Shown here: positions 29,163 to 58,211 of the stretch, piece after piece | Layout: every line of letters starts with the position of its first letter | Position numbering within the stretch: position 1 is the first letter of the stretch | Assembly (NCBI GenBank): GCA_963753595.1 | Contig: CAVWCX010000036.1 | Location: forward strand, 96,001 to 160,000 | DNA length: 64,000 nt | Origin: Candidatus Methanoperedenaceae archaeon | Lineage (GTDB): Archaea; Halobacteriota; Methanosarcinia; Methanosarcinales; Methanoperedenaceae | Direction of reading: 5' to 3' | Position numbers and translations under genes: made by a program | The notes under the pieces: generated by a model | The model's database searches: none | Told to the model about the DNA's origin: nothing | What the model saw: the letters and a program-made list of their open reading frames with translations, nothing else

Positions 29163-29175
29163 CTGACAAAGACAA

Positions 29176-29628: not shown

Positions 29629-29639
29629 TAAATAATCAT

Positions 29640-29940: not shown

Positions 29941-29965
29941 GCCAAAAAAAAAGGATTCAGGTAGC

Positions 29966-32970: not shown

Positions 32971-32971
32971 G

Positions 32972-34552: not shown

Positions 34553-34681
34553 GTGAATTGTCCAATCCCGTTCCCGCAAATCCCCGTTAGCATCTTGCTA
34601 CCCCTTGACCCCACGCTCAGAAAAGTTGCTTAATGTACTCTGAAAATCCAAGCAGGGCAGGTTTCTCTGCCCTGACCCACT

Positions 34682-35068: not shown

Positions 35069-35208
35069 TTCAACGCCATCGTTTGAAAATACCGCTATGC
35101 CATACGATTCAGGGAATAGCCGTTCAATACATTCAGCGAGTTCGGTTGTTCGCTATTCGAGTGTTAATTCGGCTTTTTTCGGTTTCTGTGCTTTGGTTGT
35201 TTTCATAT

Positions 35209-36141
35209 TTATTCCTCGCTTTTGTTATTGCTTTCAGGATTAGCGGGCGCTGGTTCGAATTGTGGGACAATGGGCGGGCTTAACAATGCGGATTTGTTCG
35301 TACCACGATGTAAATTGCCTTCTTTATCCATTGTGTACTCTGAACCACAACCGCCTTGGGTCGTGTATTTACATCTATATAATTGATACTCTTCCCCGTC
35401 AATCTTATTTTTTCCCATTCGCCCCATTTTTATACCCTTCCCGCATGGGCATAATGGATTATTACTGCCCTTAGTGTTCTCGATAAAGTTGCCGTCATCA
35501 CCTACATAATATGTTTTTCCACATCCATCATGGGATAAATAGCAATGATATGACCCCCCACCCTTGTTTAACTTATAGTCCATTTTCTTCCCACATGAAG
35601 GACATTTTCGTTTTGTAGTTTGTTTTGTGATTTCAGGTATTGTCGGAGGTTCTATTTCATCCCGTCCAGAAATAACCTCTTGAAGTGTGGTTTTACCCAC
35701 CCCGCCCATGCTGGACATTATTTCAGACGCGACCTTAATACTATTACTGTCGTCCACGGCGTTTGATCTTGGTTTGAGGGCTTCAACCTCTTGCCTGAGT
35801 TGAGTCATTTCTTTTCTCAACTGTTGCATAGCCTCAGCTTTTACAAAACCCTTAGACTGCAATTCTTCCCTGAGTTGTCTTACCTGATCTTCATATGAAA
35901 GATTCCGAGTTCTAAATCTCGATACCTTGTTTGAAATCACGCTGGGGAATTTAGTTTTCAATAATTCGAGGATTTTATCGTTTGTAATCCAGAACCGTGT
36001 TTCATCTCTTTCTATATGGCATTGTATAAGGAATTCCAACTGCCCTGCAAGATTATTCCGAAACTCTGACCCCGTGAATATAAGGTACGGGAGCGATTGC
36101 TCAATTATGTAATCTAAAGCCAATTCAAATCTGCTGTCCAT
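35209..36141 (-). CDS. Coiled-coil protein with two C-terminal Zn ribbons, downstream of ParA
   Basis: CPSCG...C....DGCG and CPCG...C.....GGCG repeats. Confidence 0.7.
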   Translation of the reverse strand: MDSRFELALDYIIEQSLPYLIFTGSEFRNNLAGQLEFLIQCHIERDETRFWITNDKILELLKTKFPSVISNKVSRFRTRNLSYEDQVRQLREELQSKGFVKAEAMQQLRKEMTQLRQEVEALKPRSNAVDDSNSIKVASEIMSSMGGVGKTTLQEVISGRDEIEPPTIPEITKQTTKRKCPSCGKKMDYKLNKGGGSYHCYLSHDGCGKTYYVGDDGNFIENTKGSNNPLCPCGKGIKMGRMGKNKIDGEEYQLYRCKYTTQGGCGSEYTMDKEGNLHRGTNKSALLSPPIVPQFEPAPANPESNNKSEE

Positions 36142-36168
36142 TTTTTTCTCTCTCCCGTACTTCCTTAC

Positions 36169-37269
36169 TTACTCCGCGTGTTCTGGTGCTGGTTGTTCTG
36201 TGAATACAGGCGACCCGATGCTGGTTTGTATGTGTTCGGGTTCGGCAAGGGATTCGAATACGGGTGTTTTGATTCTGATCTCTTTGCTCTGTATGTCTTC
36301 TTGAAGTTTTAAAAGTTTGCCGTCCAACAGGTCAAATGTTTCCGATCGTAATATCTCGAATATAACTTTTCGGTCTGTGCTTTTGAACCGGAATAGTAAC
36401 TCATTACTTAGACTGAAATATTCGGTTTTGCTTCCTGTAAATCCAGCTACTTTCTTACGTTCTTTCGGGTTTTCTCTTACGGCGTTATCACAAACGAAAT
36501 CCCCGAAAACGTCCTTTAAAATCCGATATACTTTATTTCGGACACCATTTGAGTCTTTGACAGATAGATCGTTTTGGTACTTAACCACGGCAAGGGTTAC
36601 TTGCGGGATTTTTAGATTGTGCTGTTCGACCTGTGTGCGTATCCATGATAAGAGCGTTCGCATTCCAAGTGCCGCATCAATACTATCTATCGGGATAATA
36701 ATTTCATCGGCAACGCTACATGCCAGCGTATTTAATTTGTTTCCTTCGATTGCAGGCGCGGTATCCATGATAATTAAGTCGAAGTATTGTTTATAAAAGT
36801 CAATGTTGGTCTTAAACCAATTAAAAATATTCGTATTGGAAGCGGTCGTATAAGTTTTCTGGCTGAATTTATTGAATGTGTTTTCCGCATCCATTTCAGC
36901 TTCATGACTTCCCGGCATTAATCCAATATGTCCCGGTCTGACGATTGAGTTATTCATTCTTTTTAAACTGGAATAATGCAGCATTTTTATTAACTTGCGG
37001 TCAGGTTCTTCCCGGTAATTCATGAATAGAGAATTTAATCGATGGCCTTCAATCAAATCATCTGACATTCCCAATCTTTGACTTAAATTCGATTGCGGGT
37101 CATTATCCCAAAACAAAACTGACCCTCCGCTTCTGGCTTTTATCATGCCTAAAGCAGTTGCGGTAGATGTTTTTCCTACGCCGCCTTTATTATTTACAAC
37201 GATTACTATTTTCGATTGTGCTATTCTCTCCGGCGGGAGTCGTATAATTAATTCTTCGTTCTTCTTCAT
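36169..37269 (-). CDS. parA: ParA/Soj-family ATPase
   Basis: NNKGGVGKTS, DNDPQSNLS, IMDTAP and ADEIIIP. Confidence 0.9.
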   Translation of the reverse strand: MKKNEELIIRLPPERIAQSKIVIVVNNKGGVGKTSTATALGMIKARSGGSVLFWDNDPQSNLSQRLGMSDDLIEGHRLNSLFMNYREEPDRKLIKMLHYSSLKRMNNSIVRPGHIGLMPGSHEAEMDAENTFNKFSQKTYTTASNTNIFNWFKTNIDFYKQYFDLIIMDTAPAIEGNKLNTLACSVADEIIIPIDSIDAALGMRTLLSWIRTQVEQHNLKIPQVTLAVVKYQNDLSVKDSNGVRNKVYRILKDVFGDFVCDNAVRENPKERKKVAGFTGSKTEYFSLSNELLFRFKSTDRKVIFEILRSETFDLLDGKLLKLQEDIQSKEIRIKTPVFESLAEPEHIQTSIGSPVFTEQPAPEHAE

Positions 37270-37822: not shown

Positions 37823-38074
37823 TACTTATCCCTAAAATTTGTAATAAGCCCTACCCTGCGGTCAACCTCTTCTTGTGGGCAGCAGAGCTGCGGAGTATTA
37901 TGAATTAGTCATAAATTCAGTAATCGATATCCCAATTTTCTAAAAAAATTTTGGCGACGATCCAACTATAATAAAAAACTCGTTTTTCTAAAGTTTCCGA
38001 CCAACAAAAAACGCTAGGCATCACGGGCAACCAACATACAATAAACCCCAACCCACTGGCAAAAAAAATAACAA

Positions 38075-38254
38075 CTACTCCGGCTCTTCAGGGCCCAGGA
38101 ACTCATTCCAGCACTTATCAGAGCAGATGCCGGTTATCAACTGTTCACGTTCCCACGGTTTGGAGTTCGGGAACTGTTCCTGGACAGGTCTGTCATTGAA
38201 CCTATCAAGCACGGTATCGTATACCTGATGACAATTCGGACACTGTCGTCTCAT
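38075..38254 (-). CDS. Small Zn-finger protein (59 aa, MRRQCPNCHQ...CSDKCW)
   Basis: Hand-translated; ATGA overlap with the upstream ORF. Confidence 0.6.
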   Translation of the reverse strand: MRRQCPNCHQVYDTVLDRFNDRPVQEQFPNSKPWEREQLITGICSDKCWNEFLGPEEPE

Positions 38255-38388
38255 AGTTCAACCACGCTCCCGCATAGTGAACAAAGACCGACGCTTCGAT
38301 ACTCAACCTCTATTCCGTTTCTGACTGCTTCGTTATAGCTGAGCAAACGGTTATCACCGCACTCTTTACAAGTCTTCTCATTGTTCAT
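38251..38388 (-). CDS. Small Zn-finger protein (45 aa, MNNEKTCKECG...CSLCG)
   Basis: Hand-translated; GGAGG SD and conserved promoter directly upstream. Confidence 0.6.
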   Translation of the reverse strand: MNNEKTCKECGDNRLLSYNEAVRNGIEVEYRSVGLCSLCGSVVEL

Positions 38389-38399
38389 ATTGATCCTCC

Positions 38400-38447
38400 G
38401 AACTATCGATACTTCGATAATTCGCCCACGATAATTTTATATAAAAA
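38400..38447 (-). promoter_or_regulatory. Class-1 promoter/palindrome cassette, copy 1
   Basis: GAACTATCGA-tact-TCGATAATTC followed by AATTTTATATAAAA. Confidence 0.7.
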
Positions 38448-38847
38448 CCAGACAACAAACCGCCAGCATGCAGCGCACGATCATTCCCTGGCCGGGCTTT
38501 AGCACCATTATTCCGACGTCAACATACGGCACGCCGTTCCCTGAAAGAAGATATGCTTGAAAAAGCGATGGATATAGTATGCTTTGGAAGCAATTTGGGT
38601 ATAATCTTGGAAAAATGCTATTTAAGCATATACCAATAATTGAATGCGTAGAGGATAATACATAACGCTTTACAAGATTCCCACCTATCCTATCCACAAT
38701 CTATCCAAGAATTCTTGAAATCCTCTACCTTTTCTATTCATATATTAGATTGATTCATTCTATTAACACTCATGCACTGCCATGATTCCAGTGGCAAAAA
38801 AAAAAATGCCTGAAAAAGCCTGATGGACCCTTTCTAGCCTAAATCCT

Positions 38848-39093
38848 TCATACTGGCACCCACTTGTATCCATATGACACACCGCCGGGCAGAAGATCCA
38901 GGACCACGTTATCGCAGGCTTTTGGATCGTTGAACACAAGCATGCGCCTGAAACCGTTGCAGCATTTGTCAGCGTCTTCCTTGAAAAACCATGTATGGTT
39001 GCCTGACTTGCATTTGTGGGTCATACTCTCATCTCGCGCTGGAACTCTTCGAATGGCTTTGCCTCCTCTCCTGAAAGGATGGCCTTCATGCAA
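38848..39093 (-). CDS. Small hypothetical protein
   Basis: Cys-rich; likely start at the internal MTHKCKSG. Confidence 0.45.
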   Translation of the reverse strand: MHEGHPFRRGGKAIRRVPARDESMTHKCKSGNHTWFFKEDADKCCNGFRRMLVFNDPKACDNVVLDLLPGGVSYGYKWVPV

Positions 39094-39157
39094 TAGTCAC
39101 CATACTTTTCCCTGAGCACCTGGTCTTTATACGCCAAAAGATAATTGGGCATGGAGA

Positions 39158-39583
39158 TCATACCTCCACATGCAGCTCTTTTGCGATAGTATCATAACTT
39201 GCCTTCACAAGATCTGGATGCTCGGTAACAAGCTGGTTCATCCGTCTGCATGCTTCGATGATCATGGCCCGTTTGATCATATCCACGAGCAAGAAGCGAT
39301 GGCAATTACCCACGCGCTCAAAGCATACAAGATACACATCTTTAGTCTTTGCAAGCTCTCCGATCCTTAGCATCTCGACCTTGCATTTCGGATTATCCAT
39401 CTCCCTCAAAAACCTTGAGATATATCCATCCCAGGTCATCTTTCCCGCTTTATACTCTTTCAGCATATCCCACGAAGGAGATAGCACGCTTCCAGCCCTG
39501 CGCGTTACATCAATCAATACCGCATCTGGATCCGCTCTTCTTACATTCTCAACATTTCCCAAGTATGTTTCTTTTAAACTCAT
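39158..39583 (-). CDS. DUF488-family protein
   Basis: LSPSWDML...WDGY..RF..EM...LVCFE...CHR. Confidence 0.75.
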   Translation of the reverse strand: MSLKETYLGNVENVRRADPDAVLIDVTRRAGSVLSPSWDMLKEYKAGKMTWDGYISRFLREMDNPKCKVEMLRIGELAKTKDVYLVCFERVGNCHRFLLVDMIKRAMIIEACRRMNQLVTEHPDLVKASYDTIAKELHVEV

Positions 39584-39593
39584 ATCAAATCAC

Positions 39594-39641
39594 GAACTAT
39601 CGAACCTTCGATAATTCACTCCTCACAATTTTATTTAAAAA
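39594..39641 (-). promoter_or_regulatory. Class-1 promoter/palindrome cassette, copy 2
   Basis: GAACTATCGA-acct-TCGATAATTC followed by AATTTTATTTAAAA. Confidence 0.7.
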
Positions 39642-39714
39642 TAGAATAATATGAAAGCAGAACTCAAACTTGCGGCTTATTTTTCAACGTATATTGAATG
39701 GTTAATTATTTATC

Positions 39715-40008
39715 GTGAGAATTACAGATATATTAAAGATGTACAACGTTGAGGAATTTAAAAAGCTGTATCCAGAGATGTTTCCACGAACAACGCCAAC
39801 AGACATTATTATAGGCGTGCTTATTTTATCTCTTCTTTTTATTATCCCCTATCTTTACATCAGGTTCCTGGAGGACAGGGTGATCTCATTCCTGGGAAAC
39901 AGGCTTATCCCTTTTATAGAATTCAAGTTGAGATTGAAAAGGATCATAGATCTTGTTCATCAAATACTTGAAATGTCGGTTTTTGGAAATCCCAGGTCAA
40001 GGATATAA
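39715..40008 (+). CDS. Small membrane protein
   Basis: One TM helix (IIIGVLILSLLFIIPYLYI). Confidence 0.45.
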   Translation: MRITDILKMYNVEEFKKLYPEMFPRTTPTDIIIGVLILSLLFIIPYLYIRFLEDRVISFLGNRLIPFIEFKLRLKRIIDLVHQILEMSVFGNPRSRI

Positions 40009-40036
40009 ATCATTTAAAAAAAAGAAGGGAGAGGTA

Positions 40037-40924
40037 TCATAGACCTCTCTTGAATTTATCAAACCAGAATTTCACAGACGATGCTGCGGTGTCAAACTTC
40101 CTGGCAGTCGCTCTTAAACTGAGACCGTCCTTGAAAGCGTCTCTCAGATTCTGTCGGTCAGCTTCACTGAAGGTCCTATGGTGCTTCATGGGGCTATCAT
40201 CTGTAACTTTACGAACGAAAGTAGGGGAATGCCCGGTAAGTTTCGCGACTTCAGTATTATTGAAGCCTTTTTCCTTCAACTCTCTTATACGATCTCTTTC
40301 TTCCAGTGAAACTTTTAAGAATTTTCTGGTCGATAGATTTTCGTGCGTTACCGACATGATGATATTACGGATCACGTCATGATGTCTGCCAAACTTCTTA
40401 CCGATCCTGGTTGAAGACATACCATTTCTATATAATTTCAGGATTTCTGTTTTAAGTTCATCCGTTACTGGTTTATGCCTCTCTCGTTTAATGTTGGTTT
40501 CCATGATCCTCATTGATTGATATATTTGAGAATCTGCAATGTCGTATTTTGTGACGATACTCTTGATAGACATTCCTGCAGTATAGTCAGAAATAATCTT
40601 ATTGCGTTTTTCATCTGATAGAGGGCGCCATCGTCTAATAGCGGGTCGGTCTATTCCCATGATCTTATAGGCAAGCATGTAAAGACGATATTGGATTTCG
40701 GATCCACTCTGTCGAATAATAAACGACGAAGGGTTTCCTCCTGCCAGAGTAATTCCTCTGACTCTCTTTACTTGCCACAAAGCCGGAGTTTTTGCTTCAT
40801 GCAAAGGGCTGCAGTGCTGTATATCCGACCAGGAAGCCTTGTAAACATCACCAAATTGGTCGAAAAGTTCTTCATGTGGTTCTGCGTAAGCTACGCTCGT
40901 GTAGGTTTTTACTAAGGGAAACAT
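40037..40924 (-). CDS. Protein with four tandem HTH-like repeats
   Basis: GMSIKSIVTKY, GMSSTRIGKKFG, GFNNTEVAKLTG and GLSLRATARKF. Confidence 0.75.
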   Translation of the reverse strand: MFPLVKTYTSVAYAEPHEELFDQFGDVYKASWSDIQHCSPLHEAKTPALWQVKRVRGITLAGGNPSSFIIRQSGSEIQYRLYMLAYKIMGIDRPAIRRWRPLSDEKRNKIISDYTAGMSIKSIVTKYDIADSQIYQSMRIMETNIKRERHKPVTDELKTEILKLYRNGMSSTRIGKKFGRHHDVIRNIIMSVTHENLSTRKFLKVSLEERDRIRELKEKGFNNTEVAKLTGHSPTFVRKVTDDSPMKHHRTFSEADRQNLRDAFKDGLSLRATARKFDTAASSVKFWFDKFKRGL

Positions 40925-40933
40925 ACATGCCTC

Positions 40934-41016
40934 ATTTGGAGATCGCAGGATTCCAAATCATGTGATCGCTTGCGATTTTGAGTTTTTAACTCACCAAAAT
41001 CAAATTTTATTTAAAA
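40934..41016 (-). promoter_or_regulatory. Class-2 promoter/leader, copy 1
   Basis: atttggagatcgcagga...ttaactcaccaaaatcaaattttatttaaaa, repeated at 41581..41661. Confidence 0.7.
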
Positions 41017-41030
41017 ATGAGGCGTTCACT

Positions 41031-41112
41031 GCTTCCGCCGCAACAGCGGCGCGCTACCCATCCGCAGATGGCGCAACACATGCTGATCAGGGTCTGGGTG
41101 AAACCCAGCGCT
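41031..41112. other. Conserved three-hairpin structured element, copy 1
   Basis: GCCGC-aaca-GCGGC, CCATC-cgca-GATGG and CTGGGT-gaa-ACCCAG; second copy at 45335..45415. Confidence 0.65.
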
Positions 41113-41206
41113 CATCTTGTGGAATTGCAGAAAAATCGAGACGGAACCGAAAAAAAGAAAAAGGGAATCTTGAACGCGCCTGAGGCGATACATCAAATAA
41201 ATGGGA

Positions 41207-41356
41207 TCATTTCTCCACCTCCCTGACATATTGACTGACAGCCTCAGCCACCATCGCTGTTATCGGTTTTCTGGATTTCATTTTCATCCGATACATGGCA
41301 GCCATATCTTCTTCGGATATCTTATTGCCGACCCAGGTATAACGGGGATAGCTCAT
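41207..41356 (-). CDS. Small RHH-like protein (49 aa, MSYPRYTWVGNKISEEDM...MVAEAVSQYV)
   Basis: Hand-translated; ATGA-coupled to 41353..41580. Confidence 0.55.
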   Translation of the reverse strand: MSYPRYTWVGNKISEEDMAAMYRMKMKSRKPITAMVAEAVSQYVREVEK

Positions 41357-41580
41357 AGTCGTTCGCCTGCATCCTTCAGTTGCTGTTCGATTTCCCTCAT
41401 CTCATCGACATAATCCCACCAAGCTTCCATCGATGACGGATCCAGTGGGCTGACTAGAGGAGCTTCCCTGGCGCGTTTAATGAAATGTTCTCTAATCTTT
41501 TCCCGCTCTGTCTGAGCGAAAGTTATTTTTGATTTTGGTTCTATAGACATTCTTACAACTCCTAACAAGTTGTAGCGCAC
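41353..41580 (-). CDS. Hypothetical protein
   Basis: Likely start MSIEPKS at about 41550, after AGGAG. Confidence 0.5.
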   Translation of the reverse strand: MRYNLLGVVRMSIEPKSKITFAQTEREKIREHFIKRAREAPLVSPLDPSSMEAWWDYVDEMREIEQQLKDAGERL

Positions 41581-41661
41581 ATTTGGCGATCGCAGGATCG
41601 AGCTCCTGCGACTGCTTGCGCTATTGAGATTTTAACTCACCAAAATCAATTTTATTTAAAA
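41581..41661 (-). promoter_or_regulatory. Class-2 promoter/leader, copy 2
   Basis: Repeat of 40934..41016. Confidence 0.7.
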
Positions 41662-42289
41662 TTCACCTGTTGCATGCGGATTGCATCCTGCAAGAGCAAT
41701 TAAAATAAGAATAGACTATAAAAATAAATCAGCTTTTTCGCGTCAGGACATGAACAGGGAGACAATTCTTCATGGCGCCTGCGGCGATAACCCGGAGCAT
41801 AAAATAGTGTGGTGAGGGCAACAGCCTGAAAGCCTGCAACTGCAGGCGTCCCGCACGGAGCAAAGCGACAGATCACCAGATGGCTGCCATCCGAAAACCC
41901 GGCGAGTATAATCCATAAAACCCAGCATGCCCATAGTCCCAGAAATTCCCGCCGGAATCTTCAGCTTAATTCAGCGCGCCTGCAGTATGTAGGAAATTAA
42001 CGAAGGCATAATGAGGCATTGATGAATGAAGTCATAGACCGTGGTAGGCTTAATATCAATATCCTCCAGCTGCCAAGATATAATTCACTCCCTGCCCGGT
42101 CATATCAAGAGTTCCACGCGCGCCCATGTGTAGTGAACTGGTTCACTCTGAGAATGATAAGATTTCCGGATCGGGTGATATTTGATCTAGCACAAATGCC
42201 GGGATAGGAAACCCCAAAATTATACGTACAGGTTTTTTTTTCGATGCTTATATATATATTGGAAATATAATAACATGATGGTGATTTAG

Positions 42290-42568
42290 ATGATGAAGGT
42301 TCAAAGAAACAAAGCAATAAATATATTAATAGATAGTCTCGACCAATTTCATGAAGACAATTCCGTTAAGAAAATACAACAAAATTTAAAGACTATGCGG
42401 CCAGGTCAAGAATTAACCGAAGCTGAGGTTAACGCTATTTTCATAGGGCCATCAGGAGGCGATTGGGCAGAAAAAACACCGAGTTCGGATGATCCCAAAC
42501 ATGGTATCAAAGGAATATGTGCAATGATAAAGGAAAAAATGTTTAAGAAGGTCAGTTTAACAAAATAG
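42290..42568 (+). CDS. Hypothetical protein
   Basis: 92 aa with GGTGA SD and an upstream TATA box. Confidence 0.55.
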   Translation: MMKVQRNKAINILIDSLDQFHEDNSVKKIQQNLKTMRPGQELTEAEVNAIFIGPSGGDWAEKTPSSDDPKHGIKGICAMIKEKMFKKVSLTK

Positions 42569-42765
42569 ATTTGACATTGAGTCCAATGGTTTATTTGAGA
42601 ATGTCATTTCCTATATAATAAGCCTTTAAAAAGATACAATACTACAATTTTACCACAAAAAAGTAGTATCAAACCTATCTTAGATTTTTGAACAAATTGA
42701 AACCCGGTAGGAAAACACCAGAATCGCTCTTGTATCCCATAACACAGTTGCAAAATGAAAGATTA

Positions 42766-43332
42766 TTAAAGCAGACCTACTCCATCAAGTTCGATAACTA
42801 TTTTCTCGACTGCTGCTTCTGTCTCCTCTGGTTTCTTGCCGCCTGTTATCACAATTTTACCAGAACCGAACAATAGCAGTACCACTTTGGGACTGGACAT
42901 CCTGTAAACAAGACCTGGGAATTGCTCAGGTTCATATTCAATATTCTCAAGCCCAAGACCGATAGCAACTGCATTGAGGTTGAGCACTCTTCCAAGATTT
43001 GCGGATGCAACGATATTCTGTATCTTAATTTCAGGCTTATCCACGATCTGGGTACCCATTTCCCTTAATTTCTCAAACACTTTTGTAAGACCTACGTCTA
43101 CATCGGCAATACTTTTCGCTCCTGTACAAACGATCTTGCCACTGCTGAAAATAAGCGCTGCGATTTTCGGGGATGTTGTCCTGTAAACAACACCAGGAAA
43201 TCTTTCTTTATTATACTCTGCTCCTTCAAAAACGGTGATGACTTGATTCAGGTCAAGTTTTGCTCCAATAGCCGTAGATGCAACAACATTTTCTATTTTT
43301 ATAGTCTTCTTTGGATCCATAGTATTTACCAT
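42766..43332 (-). CDS. tbp: TATA-binding protein, paralogue 1
   Basis: [41 protein letters not shown]; start set at MVNT by alignment with paralogue 2. Confidence 0.97.
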   Translation of the reverse strand: MVNTMDPKKTIKIENVVASTAIGAKLDLNQVITVFEGAEYNKERFPGVVYRTTSPKIAALIFSSGKIVCTGAKSIADVDVGLTKVFEKLREMGTQIVDKPEIKIQNIVASANLGRVLNLNAVAIGLGLENIEYEPEQFPGLVYRMSSPKVVLLLFGSGKIVITGGKKPEETEAAVEKIVIELDGVGLL

Positions 43333-43679
43333 ATATTCACCTTGATAGAGGGTATTTAAAGCTTTATAGGTTGGGATTTGCACATCCGGCGGCATAAAGT
43401 CAGCAAATGAATGGGCAGATGAGAACATTATAAGCTTCTAAAAGTTCATCACAGGCATGCAGTTTTTAAAAATTAGCATAATAATAACGGTTATAGTGAG
43501 CATAAATATTTTAAGGCACCTATATATATTCTTAAATTATTAATACTATTTTATATAGGATAAATCAATAGGCAATCCCTAACATCAGCAAGGATGGCGA
43601 GGCTCCTCTCGCCACTTGCTGCAAAATAGTTTGGTGAAGTGAATATGAAAAATCTTGAAATTAAACAGCTTGGGAAACA

Positions 43680-44378
43680 ATGAGTGATTATACACTTGGC
43701 ATTAAAGAATTGGATAATGCCATAGGCGGAATAAGAAAAGGCACAAATATCATGCTTATCGGTCCGCCAATGAGCCAAAAAGAAGTTATCCTGCACTACA
43801 TAATGTATCATGGAACAGCGATAAATGATAATGCAGTAATAGCAGTAACTACTCGTGAACCTGCGACAGACATTCTGGACTGGTTTAAAGAGAACAAAAT
43901 AGTACTTCCACTGTCAAGGATCGGGATTATTGACTGCATCACAAAATCGATTGGAGGAGCTGCATTTGAGACCGAAAACATCAAATTTGCCAGCAGTCCC
44001 CAGGATTTGACCGGAATAGGAGTACGGATAAGCCAGTTTTTGGAGGATTTCCTCATGAAAAAGAAAATCCCAAAAATCCAGCTTCACATCAATTCACTTT
44101 CTGCCATATTGATGTATTCAAATATCCAGACCGTTTTCAGGTTCATGCATGTTTTTACAGGGCGCATCAAGGCAGCCGAAGCTCTGGGAATATTTGTAGT
44201 GGATAGCGGCATGCATGACGATCCTACGATAGCGACCTTAAAACAACTTTTTGATGGTATCATTGAGATCAAAGAGGAAATTGACAAGAATTACATAAGA
44301 ACTGTCGGTCTGTCATCAAAACCTACTCCCTGGCTTGAATATGAGATCGAAGGAGGAAAACTGAGGATTAACCAATGA
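43680..44378 (+). CDS. RAD55/KaiC-like RecA-superfamily protein with degenerate Walker A
   Basis: LGIKELDNAIGGIRKGTNIMLIGPPMSQKE; TLKQLFDGIIE. Confidence 0.85.
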   Translation: MSDYTLGIKELDNAIGGIRKGTNIMLIGPPMSQKEVILHYIMYHGTAINDNAVIAVTTREPATDILDWFKENKIVLPLSRIGIIDCITKSIGGAAFETENIKFASSPQDLTGIGVRISQFLEDFLMKKKIPKIQLHINSLSAILMYSNIQTVFRFMHVFTGRIKAAEALGIFVVDSGMHDDPTIATLKQLFDGIIEIKEEIDKNYIRTVGLSSKPTPWLEYEIEGGKLRINQ

Positions 44379-44661
44379 ACGCTGAAGATGAATCAAGTTT
44401 GCGATGAATTCTTCCGACAGGAAAATGCTGATCCTCTCACCTGGATGGCTTACATAAGAAAACACGGCGGGTATAAGTTCACAAAACCCGGACAGCCTTT
44501 AGTTAAAGAAATTCCCACCCTCAACAAACGGCGCGGTACCCCCTGCAAGACGAAACACCCATGCCGCATTAACACCCATCGGTTCGGGGCGCGCCTGCAG
44601 TCCATTGCATGAGGGTGAGGATGATAAGAACAAAGGGAAACAAGGGAAGAAATCAAGATTA

Positions 44662-45228
44662 TTAAAGCAGACCTAATCCATCAAGTTCTATAACAACCTT
44701 CTCCACTGCCACTTCTGCATCCTCTGGCTTCTTGCCGCCTGTTATCACAATTTTGCCAGAGCTAAACAATAGTAATACCACTTTGGGGACGGCCATCCTG
44801 TAGACAAGACCGGGGAATTGCTCAGGTTCATATTCTATATTCTCAAGCCCAAGACCGATAGCAACTGCATTGAGGTTGAGTACTCTTCCAAGATTAGCGG
44901 ATGCAACGATATTCTGTACCTTAATTTCAGGATTTTCCGGGATCATGGCACCCATTTCTCTTAATTTATTAAATACCTTTGAAAGACCAGTGTTTACATC
45001 GGCAATACTTTTTGCTCCTGTACAAACGATCTTGCCGCTGCCGAAAATAAGCGATGCTGTTTTAGGGGATTTTGCCCTGTAAACAACACCAGGGAATTTT
45101 TCTTTGTTATATTCTGCTCCTTCAAAAACAGTGATGACTTGATTCAGGTCAAGTTTTGCTCCAGTAGCCGTAGATGCAACAATATTTTCTATTTTTATAG
45201 AATTTTTAGGTTCCGTAGTATTTACCAT
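44662..45228 (-). CDS. tbp: TATA-binding protein, paralogue 2
   Basis: 188 aa with the same TBP motifs. Confidence 0.97.
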
Positions 45229-45334
45229 ATTCTCCCCTTATTATAGGGTATTTAAAGCTTATATGTTGGGATGCATCTTCCGGATTGCCACACAATTCTC
45301 TCAAAGTATCTGGAACCATGAAAACAAGCCCGCT

Positions 45335-45415
45335 GCTCCCGCCGTCAGCAGACGGCGCGCCGCCCCTGCGAGGCGCAACACACGTAGACCAGGGGTCTGG
45401 GTGAAACCCAGCGCT
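45335..45415. other. Conserved three-hairpin structured element, copy 2
   Basis: GCCGTC-agca-GACGGC, CCT-gcg-AGG and CTGGGT-gaa-ACCCAG; 23 nt identical to copy 1. Confidence 0.65.
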
Positions 45416-45835
45416 GGTATGAAGAAGATTGTATGAGTAGCGGGAATATGAACAAAAGGCGGCCCAGGTAGTCTGTGATTCAGGGTTACAATAGGAGTTA
45501 GATGAATCCTCCCGAATCGGACCGCCATTCATAAGAAGGCTACAAAGTATATTAATATTACTATTGCGTTATCTAAGAAATACTAATAAACCACATGGGG
45601 ATAGACGGCTCCACAAAAAGCACTGGTGCAAAACAGCCAACACCACAGCGCATACTACAGCCGGGAAAATTCAAATAAACCCGTGTAGAACCGTCACCTT
45701 AGTACAAGTGCACATACTATATTAATATTACTATAGTACTACATTGGTATTATATAATTTCCCGGGCGATGGGTGCGTCGCTCCGCGAGAGATGAGCTCA
45801 GCATGCCATATTCGATTGATGATGCATGCTCCTAT

Positions 45836-46215
45836 GGGTGGGCTATAACTATTATCGACCACGAACTCGATGGACTCAGGCGCGCCCTAGGGAAAGACTG
45901 AGATTATACTGCAAGGGTTTCCCCAGCCCTTGTGATATGCATGTGCTCCGCGCGCCCTGAGAAGGACTGATCTCAGATATGCAATGGTGATTTTTTCCCC
46001 GCCCCTGTGATATGCATGCCCTCAGGGGCTGTGAACTATCTTCGATCAAGAACTTGATGGACTCCTGCGCGCGCTGGGAGAGACAGAGATTATACTGCAA
46101 TGGTGATATTGCTGCCAGCTCCTATGGTATACATGGATACAGCGCGCCCAAGGAAAGACCGATATCAGGGCTGCTATGGTGAATCGACCCCGCCCCCGTG
46201 ATATACATGAGTCCT
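45836..46215. repeat. Degenerate higher-order tandem repeat (two ~190-bp units, each with two ~70-bp subunits)
   Basis: Subunits start GCGCGCCC/GCGCGCGC..GAAAGAC at about 45880, 45950, 46067 and 46142; GAACTYGATGGACTC precedes units 1 and 3. Confidence 0.65.
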
Positions 46216-46449
46216 TCGCCCCATCACGATGCTTATGTGTACGCGAATGGTTATGAACTGAAAATCATTCGCCAGGTTACGAATATCTTCAGGCGGGGGG
46301 GTTTAGGCGAGGTTGGGGCGACTTCTTTTTGATTATGGTGTTAGGTGGAATTGCAACATTTTTTGATGAACATTAAATTTTGGAAGCTTTATTTATTGAT
46401 TCCCTTATAAAGAGGCCAGTTTGATGCCACTAAGGTCGTCAGAATCAAC

Positions 46450-47200
46450 TCTCGTGATATCAGGGGGCATTATGCCGACTTCTCGATACCATGTGATATC
46501 ACCATTTATCCTCGATATCACGCGATATCATACCTACCCCCTGATATCGTGTGATATCACCCTTTACACCCTGATATCACTCGATACCATGTATGTCCTC
46601 CGATATCAGGAACGTCCCCTCCCCATGTAGTGATATTTATCCTGCACTCAGCTCATCTCAGTACCCATCTCTGCTTAGTTGGAGATCCATAGAGGAAACT
46701 ACCTGTAAATTCCACCTTTGTCATATGGTTATTTGTTCGTGTAAATCCGAACAAATATGGCGGATGGGCATATAATGAAATTTGGATTTGTGATATCAGG
46801 GTAAAAGTAGTGATATCACAGTAAGGGGTGAAATTTGGCAAATATAGGGGGATAGATAGTGGTTTAAGGATTGGTGTTGTGAGGTATAGTAGCTATTTCT
46901 GTTGTTTATACAAACAAGAATTAAACGGTATCAAGAGAGAGTATTTTTGCATAAACACGTTGTTTGTGATATCACGGAGTTGGTGTGATATCAGCAAAAT
47001 TTCGTGATATCAGGGTAAATTGTGTGATATCACAGTACATATCTATTTATACTATACCAACCAATATAAAAACGTTTGAGGGGATGTTAATAGAGCATCT
47101 GAATGACCAGAGGCTATAGATAGCGTTTTTGTTTAATTCACATATCAAAAATATATATCATCTCGTGCTTGCGATATCACACCTTTTCCTGTGATATCGC
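46450..47200. repeat. Field of about 16 GATATC-core palindromes (consensus GTGATATCAC); putative origin iterons or centromere-like site
   Basis: Counted by eye; many spaced about 10 or 20 bp apart; non-coding with AT-rich stretches. Confidence 0.8.
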
Positions 47201-47530
47201 AATTAAAAAATAGCCATATAGCCCTTTTGGATTTTTCTCCAATGGAAATAAAGGTAAACAATAATCCACAAGAATCCTTAAATTATCAATCTTCATGGAA
47301 GGACTATTCTTCAACTTTCACCAGGAACCCATAGAAGTTCTTAGGAGTATAACCTCTATTGGACTGAAGTGAATCTGCCAGAATAAGCTCTCAATCGGGT
47401 TTTCAGCGATCCTTGTGAGATATGGCCACTATTCTTCCATGTAACTCGGACATGTTGCCCCACTCAAATCGCTCATGTCCTTGTTGGCACATTTGCCTGA
47501 CGAACTCATTAAGAATATCTTCCTGACCCA

Positions 47531-47806
47531 TTATGGAATCGCTCTGCTCAGTCTGATCTCCTCATGATGGCGCTCTACCATCATCCTGGTACACTCTTCA
47601 CCGTTAGGCTCATGGTCTGGTTTGGAACCGCAGAATGGACAACAATAATTTGTCACATCCACAAACCCATAATCCTTACTAATAGCATCTCGCATTTCAT
47701 CTATTGTTGAAAATGAGAAACCAAATCTGTCAGAGCCATCTATATCAAGATGGAGCTTCCCATCATCTTCTTTTCTGTAGTTAAGCATCGTTTGCATAGC
47801 GCTCAT
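47531..47806 (-). CDS. Hypothetical protein with CPFCG motif
   Basis: Coupled to the upstream ORF. Confidence 0.55.
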   Translation of the reverse strand: MSAMQTMLNYRKEDDGKLHLDIDGSDRFGFSFSTIDEMRDAISKDYGFVDVTNYCCPFCGSKPDHEPNGEECTRMMVERHHEEIRLSRAIP

Positions 47807-49254
47807 TCCTCCATGAGTCCTGAGCCAGTGCTGGTAGCTGTCATTTGCACCTGGATCATAGGCTCAGCCGCTCTCTTTGAGCGGACTGGCCATTTATGCT
47901 TTGGTTTCATGGCAATGCCTTCCTTAGCGTCCTTGAGAATCAGATAGCCTGTAAGCACCCTCTTCTGACGCTCTATTTCGCGCTTTGCACTATAGAAGTT
48001 GCGCTCACTTTTTGTGACGACAGTACTGGACTGCACTAAGATTGTATTCTTAGCGCGCAACTCTTCCACTGAATCTCCGGTTACTTTGGACATCATCTTG
48101 AGTTCTTTTTCGAACTGCTCTTCATTTCTGACGTTTATGAGTGTGGGATATTCCTCAGTCCGTATGATAGCGATATCGCGCCTTATCCTGGTTGTCACCT
48201 CACGTTCTTCGAGTGTGAAGGTGAACTTGTGGGTATCTGGATTCCAGTGCCATTTTCTGTTAAGCTCTTTGTGGGTATCATTCGTGTAATATGTTTCGAA
48301 TCCAGAGATCACGCGGCGAGTCCTGGTGACTGACACCCAGTTGGGTTTTGGCATTTCAAAGCACTGTTTCTTGATATCGCTGTGATCATTGATATCCATG
48401 AACACGGTATCATCGTTTCCGTTGGATTCTGCAAGATCCATTCGCCAATCATCGGGGAATGCACATTCATCATATCCGGAACTATCTTCTGTGCGGTCAT
48501 GACTGAACGCCACTTCTGGCACCAATCTTGGATTTGAATCCTGGTAAACCCTGACAGGTTCACCCGCTTTGTTGGTATCATAACGAAGGAACTTGCCATC
48601 ATTTCGATTGAATGTAGGCAGCGTTGATATCCTCCAGATCTTCGCAGGTCGGTTTCGTTTCTCGAACTCATCAAGTTTCTTGCGCAATGAATTCCAATAC
48701 GGGGTTTGCTTTTTATTGGCGGGAGTAACTATTAATCCACGATGCTTGTTATGCCTGGAGCACAACGAGCACATTTTCTGGACAGGGAGCTTACACGCTT
48801 TTTTTGAAGGATCTATATCCCTGCACATTATGCATGAGTGAGGCACTTCAGGACTCACAGTTTGTCTGATTGATGCAACCTCCATTTCGTGCAGTTTCTT
48901 AGCCCGTTCGTCCCATTTTGCTTTACTGAATGGGGTCTGCCAATAAGCGCGGTGAGGGGATGCTTTACCGAGATCGGGTTTATACCTCATGCCATAATTG
49001 TTTCCTTCACAAAACCCAGCGCCTGGGCACGGTTCTTTTTGTTCATATACAGGAAGAAGACACGCATCGCCGTCATGGGACTCTGAAAAAGGCAGCCGGG
49101 TATGTACGTCATGTTTTATCTGATGCTCACCAGTGACGGGTTCAGGATAGTAGTTCCAGCTCATCACGAACCTGTATGTTTCAGCAGTCATCTGCACTTG
49201 GGCATTCTCATCGGATTTGATGTCATTTGTTGTTTGTTTTTTTATATTTGACAT
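47803..49254 (-). CDS. Large hypothetical Cys-cluster protein
   Basis: Start reassigned to MSNIKK at 49254 (AGGAG SD and class-1 promoter upstream); CIMC...C...CSLC. Confidence 0.7.
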   Translation of the reverse strand: MSNIKKQTTNDIKSDENAQVQMTAETYRFVMSWNYYPEPVTGEHQIKHDVHTRLPFSESHDGDACLLPVYEQKEPCPGAGFCEGNNYGMRYKPDLGKASPHRAYWQTPFSKAKWDERAKKLHEMEVASIRQTVSPEVPHSCIMCRDIDPSKKACKLPVQKMCSLCSRHNKHRGLIVTPANKKQTPYWNSLRKKLDEFEKRNRPAKIWRISTLPTFNRNDGKFLRYDTNKAGEPVRVYQDSNPRLVPEVAFSHDRTEDSSGYDECAFPDDWRMDLAESNGNDDTVFMDINDHSDIKKQCFEMPKPNWVSVTRTRRVISGFETYYTNDTHKELNRKWHWNPDTHKFTFTLEEREVTTRIRRDIAIIRTEEYPTLINVRNEEQFEKELKMMSKVTGDSVEELRAKNTILVQSSTVVTKSERNFYSAKREIERQKRVLTGYLILKDAKEGIAMKPKHKWPVRSKRAAEPMIQVQMTATSTGSGLMEE

Positions 49255-49268
49255 AGTGTTCAACTCCT

Positions 49269-49314
49269 GAACTATCGAACTCGATAATTCACCCGTGATA
49301 ATTTTATTTAAAAT
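49269..49314 (-). promoter_or_regulatory. Class-1 promoter/palindrome cassette, copy 3
   Basis: GAACTATCGA-ac-TCGATAATTC followed by AATTTTATTTAAAA. Confidence 0.7.
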
Positions 49315-49841
49315 CAGCACTGATGTTGCCAGCCCTGCGGCGCCTGAGCGTGTTCAGAGGGTTGTTCTCAAAAACAGTTTTATTTTGTGTGGGTAGTTAT
49401 CCTGATATAAAATATATTTATAATAAAAAATTATTAGCTTGAAATCTTTCGAAAGATTTATTCCCTATAGAAATAATAGAATTACATAACAGCTTATAAA
49501 AGTAAAAGAATTCACTTCTTTAGGCAAAAACATCATCTACAGGCCCCGTACTATTTGTCCGGGGTATACCGGTGACTGCGTGCTGCGTCCGTTTTCATGC
49601 ATCCATTTTTTGCTTACTACGGGTACGCATACGTAAAATCAAATACCAATACATTTATAACTCTAAAAAAACATTTCTTGATAAAAGGAGATGACAGTAA
49701 AAAATAAACTGAATTGTAAAGTAAAATCAATTAAGATTTTACCCTACATACAAAAGCACTAGCACTCTTTTGTATGCTTTAGAGGTAATAATCTTTTCGG
49801 ATGGGCTTAGCGAATCTAAAATATACAAAGGTGAATAATTT

Positions 49842-50655: not shown

Positions 50656-51558
50656 TCACGCTCCCGACGCTGTCACGAGACCAACTTTAGGCTCGTATAT
50701 TCTGCCTTCATCCATCAGTCCTTTAAGAGCTGCTTCAAGTTGCATCAAAGTCATCCCTGCACCTTTGCATGGATTACCCAGCGTCTCAAGCTTGACTCCT
50801 TTGCCTTTATTCAGCGCGATTATCTTCTGTTCGACGAAGTTCTTCATGTCCTCAAGCGACATTGGGTCGTCAGATGGCGCCTTTGCAGCAGGCTTAGTTT
50901 CAGGGGGAGGAGATGGCGGAGCTGCTGCAGGAGGAGACACTGGAGGAACCGTAGATGAGGATGCGGGAGAACCCACACCCACATCACTCTTCATAGACAA
51001 CAAGACAGTCTTAACTATCTGCTTATAATCCTCTTTGTTAGGATACGCCGTATCGACCTCTAACCCCAGGGCGGTATTGGTCTTGAGCGCTGCAAGTCTG
51101 TCAAGTGTAGCCTTCGCGGTCTCAACCAGCCAGGTATTTCGTATATTCTCATCTGCAAGCACAACCTTCTCGGCGCGAATACTTGTAAGAACCGTACCTT
51201 CTTTTGGTGTGTACAGGGACGCTTTGCCAACGACTGTGACGAATGCCGGGAGTTTCCCGATCAATTCCTGCATGAAACTTGCAGCTTCAGGCTGGTATTG
51301 GCCTGCAGTTACGAAGAACACTCCCGTAGGATCCGAAACCCGCATGCGATAGAAACTGCCGTCAGTGCCAATATCCTCTATTTCTGTCGCTGTACCCACG
51401 ATCATTACTCTCGATGCCTTGAGGCCGGTCTGTGTAAGATATAACTGGCTCTCATATTGGTCGCCACCTTTCTTTTGGACCTCGATGGCCGTAGCTTTCA
51501 ATTCGGCTGCGAAAAGCCTTCCCGCTTTCATTCTTTCAAAAGCCATATTTCCTGCCAT
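50656..51558 (-). CDS. RPA small-subunit-like OB-fold protein with C-terminal winged helix
   Basis: SRVMIVG, RMRVSDPTGVFFVTAGQYQPEA; LMDEGRIYEP. Confidence 0.85.
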   Translation of the reverse strand: MAGNMAFERMKAGRLFAAELKATAIEVQKKGGDQYESQLYLTQTGLKASRVMIVGTATEIEDIGTDGSFYRMRVSDPTGVFFVTAGQYQPEAASFMQELIGKLPAFVTVVGKASLYTPKEGTVLTSIRAEKVVLADENIRNTWLVETAKATLDRLAALKTNTALGLEVDTAYPNKEDYKQIVKTVLLSMKSDVGVGSPASSSTVPPVSPPAAAPPSPPPETKPAAKAPSDDPMSLEDMKNFVEQKIIALNKGKGVKLETLGNPCKGAGMTLMQLEAALKGLMDEGRIYEPKVGLVTASGA

Positions 51559-51560
51559 GA

Positions 51561-52508
51561 TTATGCCTCCACTGCCACAAGTAGTGCATCTACATGGCTC
51601 ATTACATCTGCCTTGAAGGGCTTGATTGAGTCAACGATCAGATTCTTTTCAATCTGGACACCGCTTACTTCAAAATAGCGGCCTATCAACATGGCTCCCA
51701 TGTTATCTGCAACTGTTCTGCTATCCATCGACTCCATTGCGATCTCTTTTGCCCCATCCAGAGTGATGCCTGTCAGTTCTTCGGTCAGTTTCCTGTTGAG
51801 AATTACATCCTGCGAAGTGACACCATCATCGATGACACCCTTGATTCTCAGGTCATAAACACCTTCGACTTTTCCATGATCACCACAGGCGCCTTTTACA
51901 AGCGACCGATTGCATTCCGGGCAGCGCTTTATCAGACCAGAGCCTTGCTGCAGGTCAACCAGTACACCGACTACGGTAACGAGTTTCTTGGCGATCGTGA
52001 TGTCTCCAGAGAACGCGGTTATCTCGGAGTTCTTATTGACCTTGATCGATACCCTTCCCTGCCATTCGGATGTCACTACATTCTTGAAGAGGTAGCAACT
52101 CCCTTCTCTGAGAACTGGTGCTCCCGATGATTTCCAGGTCGTGAACACTACTGTGCCAGTCTCATCACCGAGTATACCTGTCTGGAGTATCTTCTCATGT
52201 TTTGGTTCCCACAGGATCGAAACCCTGGCATTGAAAGAACACCACTTATTATCTTCTATCAGTTCAGCGATCTTGACTGGATTCTGATTAGCGAATCCCG
52301 CTGTGGCAAAGAACTCATCCGGATTAATATTGTGGACCTTAAGGAAGCGGCTTGTAACGTTCCTGCTTGCCTCATTCAAAGGTACTCTGAACTTGTTCAC
52401 AAGAATTGACAACTGTTCAATTATGTCTCTTTCCTGTATCTGTACATTCACTTTCGCGAATCTTTCCTTTATTTCTAAAGATGTTTGTTGTATCTTTGCA
52501 TTTTCCAT
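51561..52508 (-). CDS. rpa: Replication protein A (OB fold plus Zn finger)
   Basis: QTGILGDETG, GSGLIKRCPEC...CGDHG and DLRIKGVIDDG. Confidence 0.9.
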   Translation of the reverse strand: MENAKIQQTSLEIKERFAKVNVQIQERDIIEQLSILVNKFRVPLNEASRNVTSRFLKVHNINPDEFFATAGFANQNPVKIAELIEDNKWCSFNARVSILWEPKHEKILQTGILGDETGTVVFTTWKSSGAPVLREGSCYLFKNVVTSEWQGRVSIKVNKNSEITAFSGDITIAKKLVTVVGVLVDLQQGSGLIKRCPECNRSLVKGACGDHGKVEGVYDLRIKGVIDDGVTSQDVILNRKLTEELTGITLDGAKEIAMESMDSRTVADNMGAMLIGRYFEVSGVQIEKNLIVDSIKPFKADVMSHVDALLVAVEA

Positions 52509-52603
52509 ATATATTCACCTTTTGTTTTATTTTAGGAGATAAGTCATAGGCCGACAGTGGATTTTAACCACCTGGGAATTTCCAACCCGTGACTTACATC
52601 ATT

Positions 52604-52834
52604 TCAATTTGTCCGACCAAGGGGGGTTGATGTTTCTGCACCGCAGTGCGAAACTTCACCCTCCGCAGCGTCGGCGCTGTCACGCTGTTTCTCCGGGATC
52701 GCTTGCAACACTTTCTTTGCGCACTTTGGACCGTATACCTGCGGAGCTTTGATCTTGCGGTGGCAGCGCAGGCATTTGTTATAGAGCGTAACTATGGCGC
52801 TAGCATTCTCTTTGAATTCTAATTCATCTGACAT
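52604..52834 (-). CDS. Small Zn-finger protein
   Basis: CLRCHRKI....YGPKCAKK. Confidence 0.6.
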   Translation of the reverse strand: MSDELEFKENASAIVTLYNKCLRCHRKIKAPQVYGPKCAKKVLQAIPEKQRDSADAAEGEVSHCGAETSTPLGRTN

Positions 52835-52947
52835 TTTATCACCTTATTCGTCTCGTTTCTTTACAATAGTAATGTAAATGCATTACGAGAATATAAGTAT
52901 TACTATTGTAATACAAAACAAGCCGCGTTAATTGCAGCAATTGTTAA

Positions 52948-53232
52948 TTATAATCGTTTGCCATCGTACCAGATCGACGTGCATCCAGCATTTGGCATCC
53001 CGAAATCATCAAGGGGCTCAAAGCCATCATAATCCCCGATGATCTTTCCTTCATAATAGAGGTTCATGTCGTCATCAAACATCTGGAAGGGGACTCCTTT
53101 TAAAATCTCTTCCTTTGTAAAAGTGGTATCGTGACCACCCATTGTCCCGGTTTCATTTGTTTCCGCTTCACTATGATCTCCTTTTTCGAAAAGGACGTCT
53201 CTTGTTATTATCCAGCCGTACATTTCATTCAC
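52948..53232 (-). CDS. Hypothetical protein
   Basis: 94 aa in an operon with RadC. Confidence 0.65.
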   Translation of the reverse strand: MNEMYGWIITRDVLFEKGDHSEAETNETGTMGGHDTTFTKEEILKGVPFQMFDDDMNLYYEGKIIGDYDGFEPLDDFGMPNAGCTSIWYDGKRL

Positions 53233-58209: not shown

Positions 58210-58211
58210 TT

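Follow-up and report, generated by a model that had tools for sequence, protein, structure and literature searches.

The stretch of DNA analysed here, termed the window, comprises 64,000 nt (bases 96001-160000 of the 214-kb contig C36) of a Candidatus Methanoperedens metagenome-assembled genome, labelled G000, which has 2.89 Mb in 37 contigs and is 92% complete. Within this window two genes for TATA-binding protein (TBP), designated TBP-A and TBP-B, stand on either side of a gene for a KaiC-like protein, and this cassette lies among five promoters of a shared type in an island that also holds genes of tailed-virus character. The features of the cassette, in window coordinates, are as follows:

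42766-43332, minus strand: TBP-A, an accessory TBP of 188 amino acids (aa) with two repeats (PF00352, E-value 5.6e-61)
43333-43400, minus strand: host-type tbp core promoter and leader of TBP-A (CCCAAC..TATAAAGCTTTAAATACCCT..AAGGTGA..ATG; motif at 43349-43364), which aligns with the sequence upstream of the host TBP1 gene
43680-44378, plus strand: degenerate KaiC-like protein (DUF7504 / 'RAD55 family') of 232 aa (DUF7504, E-value 6.8e-24; KaiC PF06745, 1.2e-6)
44559-45336: segment bearing TBP-B, absent from a related allele (metagenome locus L145)
44662-45228, minus strand: TBP-B, a second accessory TBP of 188 aa with two repeats (PF00352, E-value 4.2e-59)
45229-45300, minus strand: host-type tbp core promoter and leader of TBP-B, identified by upstream alignment (motif at 45245-45260)
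38433-49312, minus strand: span of five element-type promoters (TTTAAATAAAATT plus a conserved leader), at 38433, 39627, 41003, 41648 and 49300

Both TBPs score far above the PF00352 cut-off of 22.9 bits (202.8 bits for TBP-A and 196.8 bits for TBP-B, with two matched stretches in each protein), and their top matches in the Protein Data Bank (PDB) are the archaeal TBPs 2z8u, 1pcz and 1ais (E-values 5.5e-54 to 4e-49). The longest open reading frame (ORF) for TBP-A would encode 220 aa; the protein is taken as 188 aa because every homologue begins at MVNT. TBP-A and TBP-B are identical at 157 of 187 positions (84%). A preliminary description of the window had reported two highly similar TBPs of 188 aa, a KaiC/RAD55-like gene flanked by both and a duplicated sequence upstream of each; all three are borne out, as both of the peptides that it quoted were found, the middle gene matches DUF7504, DUF7090 and KaiC, and AAGCTTTAAATACCCT occurs twice in the window with approximately 50 nt alignable before each ATG. 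It had also placed the substitutions between the two proteins mainly in the N-terminal repeat, which holds weakly (19 of 97 residues differ in the N-terminal half versus 11 of 91 in the C-terminal half).

The genome contains five TBP genes and a single gene for transcription factor B (TFB), which lies outside the window. Besides the two window copies, one TBP gene is located on contig C24 between purD and rpl15e (ribosomal protein L15e) and represents the housekeeping TBP (TBP1); this purD-tbp-rpl15e synteny is held in most genomes of the genus, of which 49 were surveyed (genomes are labelled G0xx, their contigs Cx, and single loci from these genomes or from metagenomes Lxxx). Neither window TBP has a purD or rpl15e neighbour, and their identities to the C24 copy are 84% (TBP-A) and 81% (TBP-B). 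The remaining two genes, C4:81707-82279 and C25:41953-42525 (the latter at a contig end), encode identical divergent TBPs with 57-60% identity to the other copies; as their neighbours are identical too, this twin is probably an assembly duplicate or derives from two strains.

A tree of 57 TBPs joined the 13 copies located outside the purD/rpl15e context in one clade (support 100/99) that is nested among host TBP1s, beside those of G031, G017 and G002 (98/91); eight further rows labelled 'other' grouped with the host copies, their loci being too short or rearranged to show synteny. The same split between accessory and host genes was obtained in a DNA tree of 12 accessory and nine host genes (100/99). 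A phylogeny against host copies had been proposed at the outset as a check on whether the window TBPs are ordinary syntenic paralogues, and they are instead members of this separate accessory clade. Full-length accessory TBPs were found in 9 of the 49 genomes and in at least six different contexts, which points to mobility of the clade. Scans of IMG/VR with TBP-A, the KaiC-like protein and the TBP alignment gave no relative with the few exact peptide patterns used, and PADLOC returned no defence-system match for the window TBPs or the KaiC-like protein.

The two window copies have different closest relatives: for TBP-A this is a copy on G036:C55 (92% aa identity), and for TBP-B the TBP next to the KaiC-like gene of metagenome locus L177 (97% over 178 columns; 100/100 support). 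The protein tree holds TBP-A and TBP-B apart (98/82-87); the DNA tree does not resolve the placement of TBP-B, and an approximately unbiased (AU) test did not reject the two as sisters (p 0.31). Their synonymous divergence (dS 0.28, ω 0.31) argues against a recent tandem duplication, and the trees and AU test are compatible with either duplication in place or a second acquisition as the origin of TBP-B. Locus L145 represents an allele without TBP-B, as it aligns to 43453-44558 and then skips to 45337-45701; TBP-B is likewise missing downstream of the KaiC-like gene in G036:C176 and G002:C44. Because it is missing from a related allele, the TBP-B segment behaves as an insertion or duplication unit. 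Contigs derived from reads of three DNA runs and one RNA run were also examined, and joints in these that skip or rearrange the cassette (39636→45321, 41878→44444 and 43424/45286) were disregarded as their short sides measure 29-46 nt and lie in repeats; no sequencing run contained more than 31% of the sampled words from 38000-47900.

Ratios of non-synonymous to synonymous substitution (dN/dS) are 0.12-0.35 within the accessory clade versus 0.01-0.05 among host TBP1s, and dS between the clade and the TBP1 of this genome is greater than 1. Together these values indicate a clade that is old relative to the species, constrained, and faster-evolving than TBP1, and the accessory TBPs are under purifying selection, albeit relaxed. 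The clade has five fixed substitutions that are found in none of 40 host rows (L35F, D39E, T/V103K, I122V and L145M), and both window TBPs carry further changes at positions that are invariant in host TBP1. The phenylalanines F45, F62, F138 and F155 are invariant in a 30-sequence alignment that includes both window copies, and we take these to be the pairs that kink DNA (FPG and (L/I)F.SGK motifs in each repeat) in TBP-DNA structures. A 16-residue stretch of the C-terminal stirrup, presumably the TFB contact as in 1AIS and 1D3U, is identical across TBP-A, TBP-B and host TBP1.

A perfectly kept TFB-contact stirrup in a protein whose remainder evolves faster, together with a single TFB to compete for, is what might be expected of decoy or dominant-negative TBPs that titrate host TFB or TBP-targeting factors, either to stop host transcription or to protect the element. 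However, the DNA-contact phenylalanines and β-sheet motifs are intact and give no sign of lost DNA binding, and dN/dS is well under 1 over the whole gene; we therefore consider a decoy function extremely improbable.

Both window TBPs are preceded by a host tbp1-type promoter. AAGCTTTAAATACCCT has exactly two occurrences in the window (43349-43364 and 45245-45260, both minus strand), one per TBP gene, where 0.04 would be expected by chance, and alignment showed the approximately 50 nt 5' of the ATG to be common to TBP-A, TBP-B and the C24 host copy. Every readable host TBP1 of the genus keeps this promoter and leader, as do 11 of the 12 accessory copies; 7 of the 12 have an additional upstream extension of approximately 25 nt regardless of genomic context. 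Before host tbp1 itself, the approximately 50 nt (ACCCCAA..TAT.TAAAGCTTTAAATACCCTATATAAAGGTGA) are almost invariant genus-wide (loci L059-L098 and C24); such near-invariance is unusually strong for a promoter and leader and may reflect autoregulation.

The promoters that bracket the cassette are of another type, and each drives a minus-strand transcription unit (38.4-49.3 kb). Allowing at most one mismatch, TTTAAATAAAATT has six matches in the window versus 0.49 expected, five of them on the minus strand within 38433-49312; of the five exact copies of the 13-mer in the 2.89-Mb genome, four fall in this span of approximately 11 kb, and the element promoters are extended as repeats D3 and D4. 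As a whole these promoters are distinctive, but their TATA core, TTTAAATA, is identical to that of the tbp promoters.

It had been proposed in the preliminary description that element-encoded TBPs redirect the host RNA polymerase to element promoters in the manner of phage sigma factors, possibly with the KaiC-like protein as a switch. A private and highly uniform set of element promoters around the cassette would suit such a takeover, as would the clade-fixed substitutions and the changes at host-invariant positions, and two isoforms could serve two promoter classes. Set against this, the promoters of the element and of the tbp genes share one TATA core; all of the substitutions are conservative and spare the intercalating phenylalanines and the TFB-binding stirrup; the TBP genes themselves have no element-type promoter; and members of the clade are also found far from any such promoters. 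We regard sigma-like redirection as very doubtful, and given the conserved DNA- and TFB-contact regions, the single TFB and the unchanged TATA core, TBP-A and TBP-B are better viewed as general TBPs. What stands of that earlier interpretation is that the two TBPs are non-syntenic, belong to a separate clade, lie among element promoters and have neighbours that recur in G036 and G002; of a sigma-like specificity there is no sign.

The protein encoded between the TBPs matches DUF7504 over the full profile (1-179 of 179; 85.7 bits, cut-off 27) and DUF7090 at 59.6 bits, and is barely over the cut-off for KaiC PF06745 (28.5 versus 26.6 bits). Atlas clusters of DUF7504 scored 0.99 and the sole PDB match was KaiC 8zn5 (E-value 1.2e-4). 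Its P-loop reads GPPMSQKE, as in its near relatives, and GPPMSGKE in the remoter host paralogues; the window copy departs from the canonical Walker A motif GxxxxGK[ST] and neither version of the P-loop is canonical. Homologues with 70-83% identity were present in all 36 sampled genomes of the genus, and with 53-62% across the order. In three of the four contexts examined, the host paralogue is the last gene of an operon encoding a histidine kinase and a REC-PAS response regulator (L131:4834-8900, L132:4648-8350 and L048:10581-13241); in the fourth (L130), the genes ahead of it encode a KaiC-small-GTPase fusion and a Roadblock/LC7 protein.

Metagenome contigs were scanned and added to the genus loci, which gave 16 records with a KaiC-like gene at least 87% identical to that of the window. 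Ten have a divergent TBP 281-433 nt upstream; among the other six, two have less than 215 nt of upstream DNA and so are not judgeable, two hold TBP fragments and two have none. Of the rows below 87% identity, by comparison, 0 of 51 have a TBP and 16 of 51 have a response regulator immediately upstream. The pair is present within an integrative element with integrases, RadC and OB-fold (oligonucleotide-binding) genes (L153), and also among ordinary chromosomal genes (L148, L152 and L177). In the locus G035:C2 (L104), at 9978-12173, a TBP of the accessory clade is divergent from a canonical KaiC (PF06745, 2.6e-78), a second and independent adjacency of TBP with a KaiC-family gene. Prediction of a complex between the KaiC-like protein and TBP-A gave no verdict (score 0.00) and speaks neither for nor against binding. 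The suggested link between KaiC-like protein and TBP gains comparative support from the conserved gene pairing, and the KaiC-like partner is a likely regulator of the accessory TBPs.

The best explanation as a whole, to which we assign a probability of roughly 55%, is that TBP-A and TBP-B are working accessory TBPs on a mobile cassette and are general rather than specificity factors. The accessory clade, specific to Methanoperedens, would have arisen from the host housekeeping TBP1, and the travelling unit would consist of a TBP gene with approximately 50-70 nt of its own promoter, often arranged divergently with a KaiC-like (DUF7504) gene whose P-loop is degenerate. Here the pair would have come to lie inside the replication/partition module of an integrated, probably defective island that includes a tailed-virus structural module as well, and the second TBP would have been added as an extra cassette. 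Transcribed from the host tbp1-type promoter, both proteins would occupy ordinary TATA boxes and bring in the one TFB of the host together with its RNA polymerase; the outcome would be extra TBP isoforms or dosage with no new promoter specificity, and the KaiC-like partner, whose paralogues end two-component operons, would be the likely regulatory link.

The surrounding island has the following features:

118-31360, minus strand: tailed-virus structural module with cargo islands of low guanine-cytosine (GC) content (from Pfam, PHROGs, synteny and the GC profile)
118-2430, minus strand: F5/8-type-C protein of 770 aa, receptor-binding-like
10444-17217, minus strand: tape-measure-like gene, 2257 aa
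23283-24056, minus strand: Dit (phrog_33, 2.2e-11)
24007-24375, minus strand: head-tail adaptor (phrog_195)
27148-28491, minus strand: head-maturation protease (phrog_530, 1.4e-28)
29966-31360, minus strand: portal (PF06381, 1.8e-31; phrog_146, 7.7e-46)
32233-37269: replication/partition module with PCNA, an XPF/ERCC4-HhH nuclease and a ParA-like ATPase (Pfam; PHROG ParA, 2.6e-25)
45890-47200: array of GTGATATCA-type direct and inverted repeats (families D5-D9, D11 and I1-I3), immediately downstream of the 505-aa gene
47803-49320, minus strand: Cys-rich protein of 505 aa and of unknown family (no Pfam or PHROG match; homologues in 6 of 49 genus genomes), recurring in related elements
50656-54300, minus strand: two OB-fold/SSB-like genes (weak Pfam OB matches) and RadC (3.2e-46), syntenic in G036, G024 and G062
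56749-56877, plus strand: tyrosine-integrase fragment (PF00589, 21.3 bits, sub-threshold) with one in-frame TAG, in a region kept in G036 and G024

The ORFs at 25416-26312 and 26315-27148 occupy the position expected of a major capsid gene and have no Pfam or PHROG match, and the best match of the portal in a phage collection was ANMV-1 (27% identity). Reading rightward, the replication/partition genes are followed by a multi-helix-turn-helix protein, the TBP cassette, the GTGATATCA repeats, the 505-aa gene, the OB-fold genes and RadC. The repeat array is a probable iteron-type replication origin; from its position the 505-aa protein may have a Rep-like role, and it also gave a weak atlas lead to viral GP88 clusters (0.86). 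The integrase fragment is a possible remnant of the right end. Co-linearity extends to G036:C176 and G002:C44 for the early genes with the TBP/KaiC-like pair, and to G036:C241, G024:C23 and G008:C43 for the structural module.

The assignment of the cassette to a viral-type element in the preliminary description holds in part: portal, protease, Dit and adaptor are present, but neither a terminase nor an intact integrase was found. No large terminase subunit (TerL) with PF03237 or PF03354 was detected genome-wide, other terminase families not having been searched, and none of the 35 window proteins matched a PHROG terminase. What comes after the portal in four relatives is not a terminase but unrelated genes of defence-like character, and no terminase lies beside the portal in G036, G024 or G008.

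Several observations count against the explanation given above. Besides the TerL not found with these two families, the only integrase sequence is the sub-threshold fragment with its stop codon, and there are no attachment (att) repeats, the only repeats found in the flanks (14-15 nt) being at chance level. The structural and TBP modules of G036 occupy different contigs, with helicase, HerA and UvrD genes after the portal; as the modules are not adjacent in this relative, the viral label is only partly secure for the cassette. The structural module of G036 runs into a UvrD/PD-(D/E)XK gene whose G000 counterpart is located approximately 4 kb past the window end. The 505-aa gene is found without an adjoining TBP cassette on its contig in G024, G025 and G062, OB-fold and RadC genes accompanying it in G024 and G062. 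Several members of the accessory clade sit in ordinary chromosomal surroundings and others are flanked by insertion sequences, without a KaiC-family neighbour; with some of the pairs also among chromosomal genes, the clade is not confined to elements, and an accessory module of the host could simply have been acquired by the element. The higher dN/dS could mean functional drift instead of a maintained general function. Finally, contigs from the RNA library match parts of the element at only 90-95% identity (e.g. 43054-43364), so a related element is possible as their source, as is DNA carry-over.

We also weighed the possibility that TBP-A and TBP-B are plain accessory paralogues of the host that lie in a hypervariable island of its chromosome, much like the additional TBPs of Methanosarcina or Halobacterium, with the pair being a host module beside a decaying provirus and having no role in the element. 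Host genes lie on both flanks of the island, homology with three close relatives ending at C36:95902, approximately 100 nt left of the window; and relatives keep mere pieces at the same chromosomal neighbourhood, with the head module alone remaining beside the left flank in G008 and the modules apart in G036. The lack of TerL, intact integrase and att repeats in the searches described, the clade members and pairs amid metabolic genes, the host tbp1 promoter of the TBP genes, and a host-like GC content of the cassette (0.38-0.44, versus up to 0.50 in the structural genes) would all be accommodated. However, the element-type promoters on either side of the cassette are nearly unique to an 11-kb span, which has 4 of the 5 exact copies found genome-wide. 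The cassette keeps the same early genes in the same order in G036 and G002, and its gene pair is also borne by a distant integrative element that encodes its own integrases; the restriction of the clade to 9 of 49 genomes in at least six contexts suggests mobility. This alternative is somewhat unlikely in our view. A portal or 505-aa gene was found in 9 of 49 genomes and a full-length accessory TBP in 9 of 49, with both in four, among genomes that are related to one another. The island itself is best described as composite and integrated, with the TBP pair as an accessory component, and not demonstrably a complete virus; it is probably defective.

Further sequences in and around the island were recorded. 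A GC-rich repeat of approximately 90 nt with the core GGGTCTGGGTGAAACCCAGCGCT is present at 41036-41125 and 45318-45425, its only two copies genome-wide; both have plus-strand orientation and diverge from a promoter on the minus strand. They are predicted to form hairpins of -36.5 and -42.6 kcal/mol (without a shuffle control); the repeat has no Rfam match and may be a small RNA. The window contains no Rfam family and no tRNA, and the left junction has no tRNA either. The tail module contains a 28%-GC island at 18535-22968, encoding a HEAT-repeat protein, an ATPase with an SMC/LmuB/GajA-like N terminus and a metallophosphatase, and other cargo occupies the matching spot in G036:C241. A second low-GC island (8209-10224; 27-35% GC) with YdjM-like and bacterial-PH-domain ORFs lies between the tape-measure-like and tail-tip genes, and glyoxalase, Imm5-like immunity and DUF1697 genes lie on the plus strand between protease and portal (28692-30056), the last overlapping the 3' end of the portal gene. 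Directly right of the island, at 57181-59876, is a SIR2 and HerA defence pair (PADLOC SIR2 6.4e-35, HerA 1.2e-153), and the contig also has a defence-like stretch with UvrD/PD-(D/E)XK, a D12 methylase, an AlwI endonuclease and PRTase-CE/ParB. The start of G036:C176 (L046, 1-1248) is 95-96% identical to G000:C24:85753-88301, probably owing to a shared insertion sequence beside the TBP module.

Accessory TBPs have precedents in a related order, as TBP2 and TBP3 of Methanosarcina acetivorans are reportedly non-essential beside an essential TBP1 and may tune expression; these are said to be chromosomal and species-specific, and neither a mobile context nor a pairing with KaiC is known for them. 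On accessory DNA, a parallel in arrangement, with full-length extra TBPs beside a chromosomal housekeeping copy, comes from haloarchaeal megaplasmids such as pNRC100 and pNRC200 of Halobacterium salinarum. A tblastn search found TBP in 88 plasmid records, including NC_001869.1 and NC_002608.1 with five places each. Of 50,697 virus records, 3 have a TBP; the gene is uncommon in sequenced viruses, as remarked earlier, but common on haloarchaeal plasmids. The plasmid TBPs are 57-68% identical to the window copies and are carried by replicating plasmids, usually with several TFBs, whereas the TBPs described here are in a genome with one TFB, on an integrated island, belong to a clade derived from the TBP1 of their own genus and are paired with a KaiC-like gene.

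The haloarchaeal tailed viruses HRTV-9 and HJTV-2 (MZ334505.1 and MZ334513.1/NC_062755.1) have a TBP annotated in the virus genome, which is similar to the proximity of TBP and viral genes here. Unlike the window cassette, whose viral membership is not secured, these are isolated viruses with complete genomes; their TBPs are merely 35-37% identical to the window copies, indicating independent acquisition, and the main text of the paper describing them is silent on TBP. Archaeal viruses likely exploit host TBP and TFB, according to a 2017 review (PMC5569661). In the same host genus as the present island, a figure legend lists TBP among the genes of Methanoperedens jumbo circular extrachromosomal elements (PMC13444090, Nat Commun 2026). 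Likened to the window island by description only, these also place a TBP on an accessory element, but they are circular and of 200-535 kb; the passage on them mentions no KaiC-like partner and no double TBP copy. Literature searches for Methanoperedens TBP or Borg TBP found no report of a TBP/KaiC-like pairing, and a preprint on Methanoperedens extrachromosomal elements contains no TBP or KaiC term. Mobile elements bearing a TBP thus have precedents in haloarchaeal plasmids, two haloviruses and jumbo elements of Methanoperedens, and it is the pairing of TBP with a KaiC-like gene that these searches found unreported.

This pairing is in our judgement the most interesting result. Galperin et al. 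(2018; PMC5847659) describe inactivated KaiC-like (iKaiC) domains as partners of archaeal response regulators that signal by protein contacts, and archaeal two-component systems as mostly lacking DNA-binding outputs. The host paralogues of the middle gene resemble such modules in that they end histidine kinase/REC-PAS operons in three of four contexts; the element-type copy differs in being uncoupled from a kinase or regulator, in being paired with a TBP and in the replacement of a P-loop Gly by Gln. It is conceivable, if distinctly unlikely, that TBP and the KaiC-like protein form a mobile two-gene regulatory module in which a two-component output acts directly on a dedicated TBP isoform, making a basal factor signal-gated, and that integrated elements would carry it to couple their own or host transcription to the sensory state of the host.

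An accessory TBP clade that spreads with its own promoter within one genus of methane oxidisers represents a natural experiment on the tolerance and use of additional basal factors. The pairing of TBP with iKaiC, in turn, provides a concrete and testable candidate for the missing link from archaeal two-component signalling to the transcription machinery.

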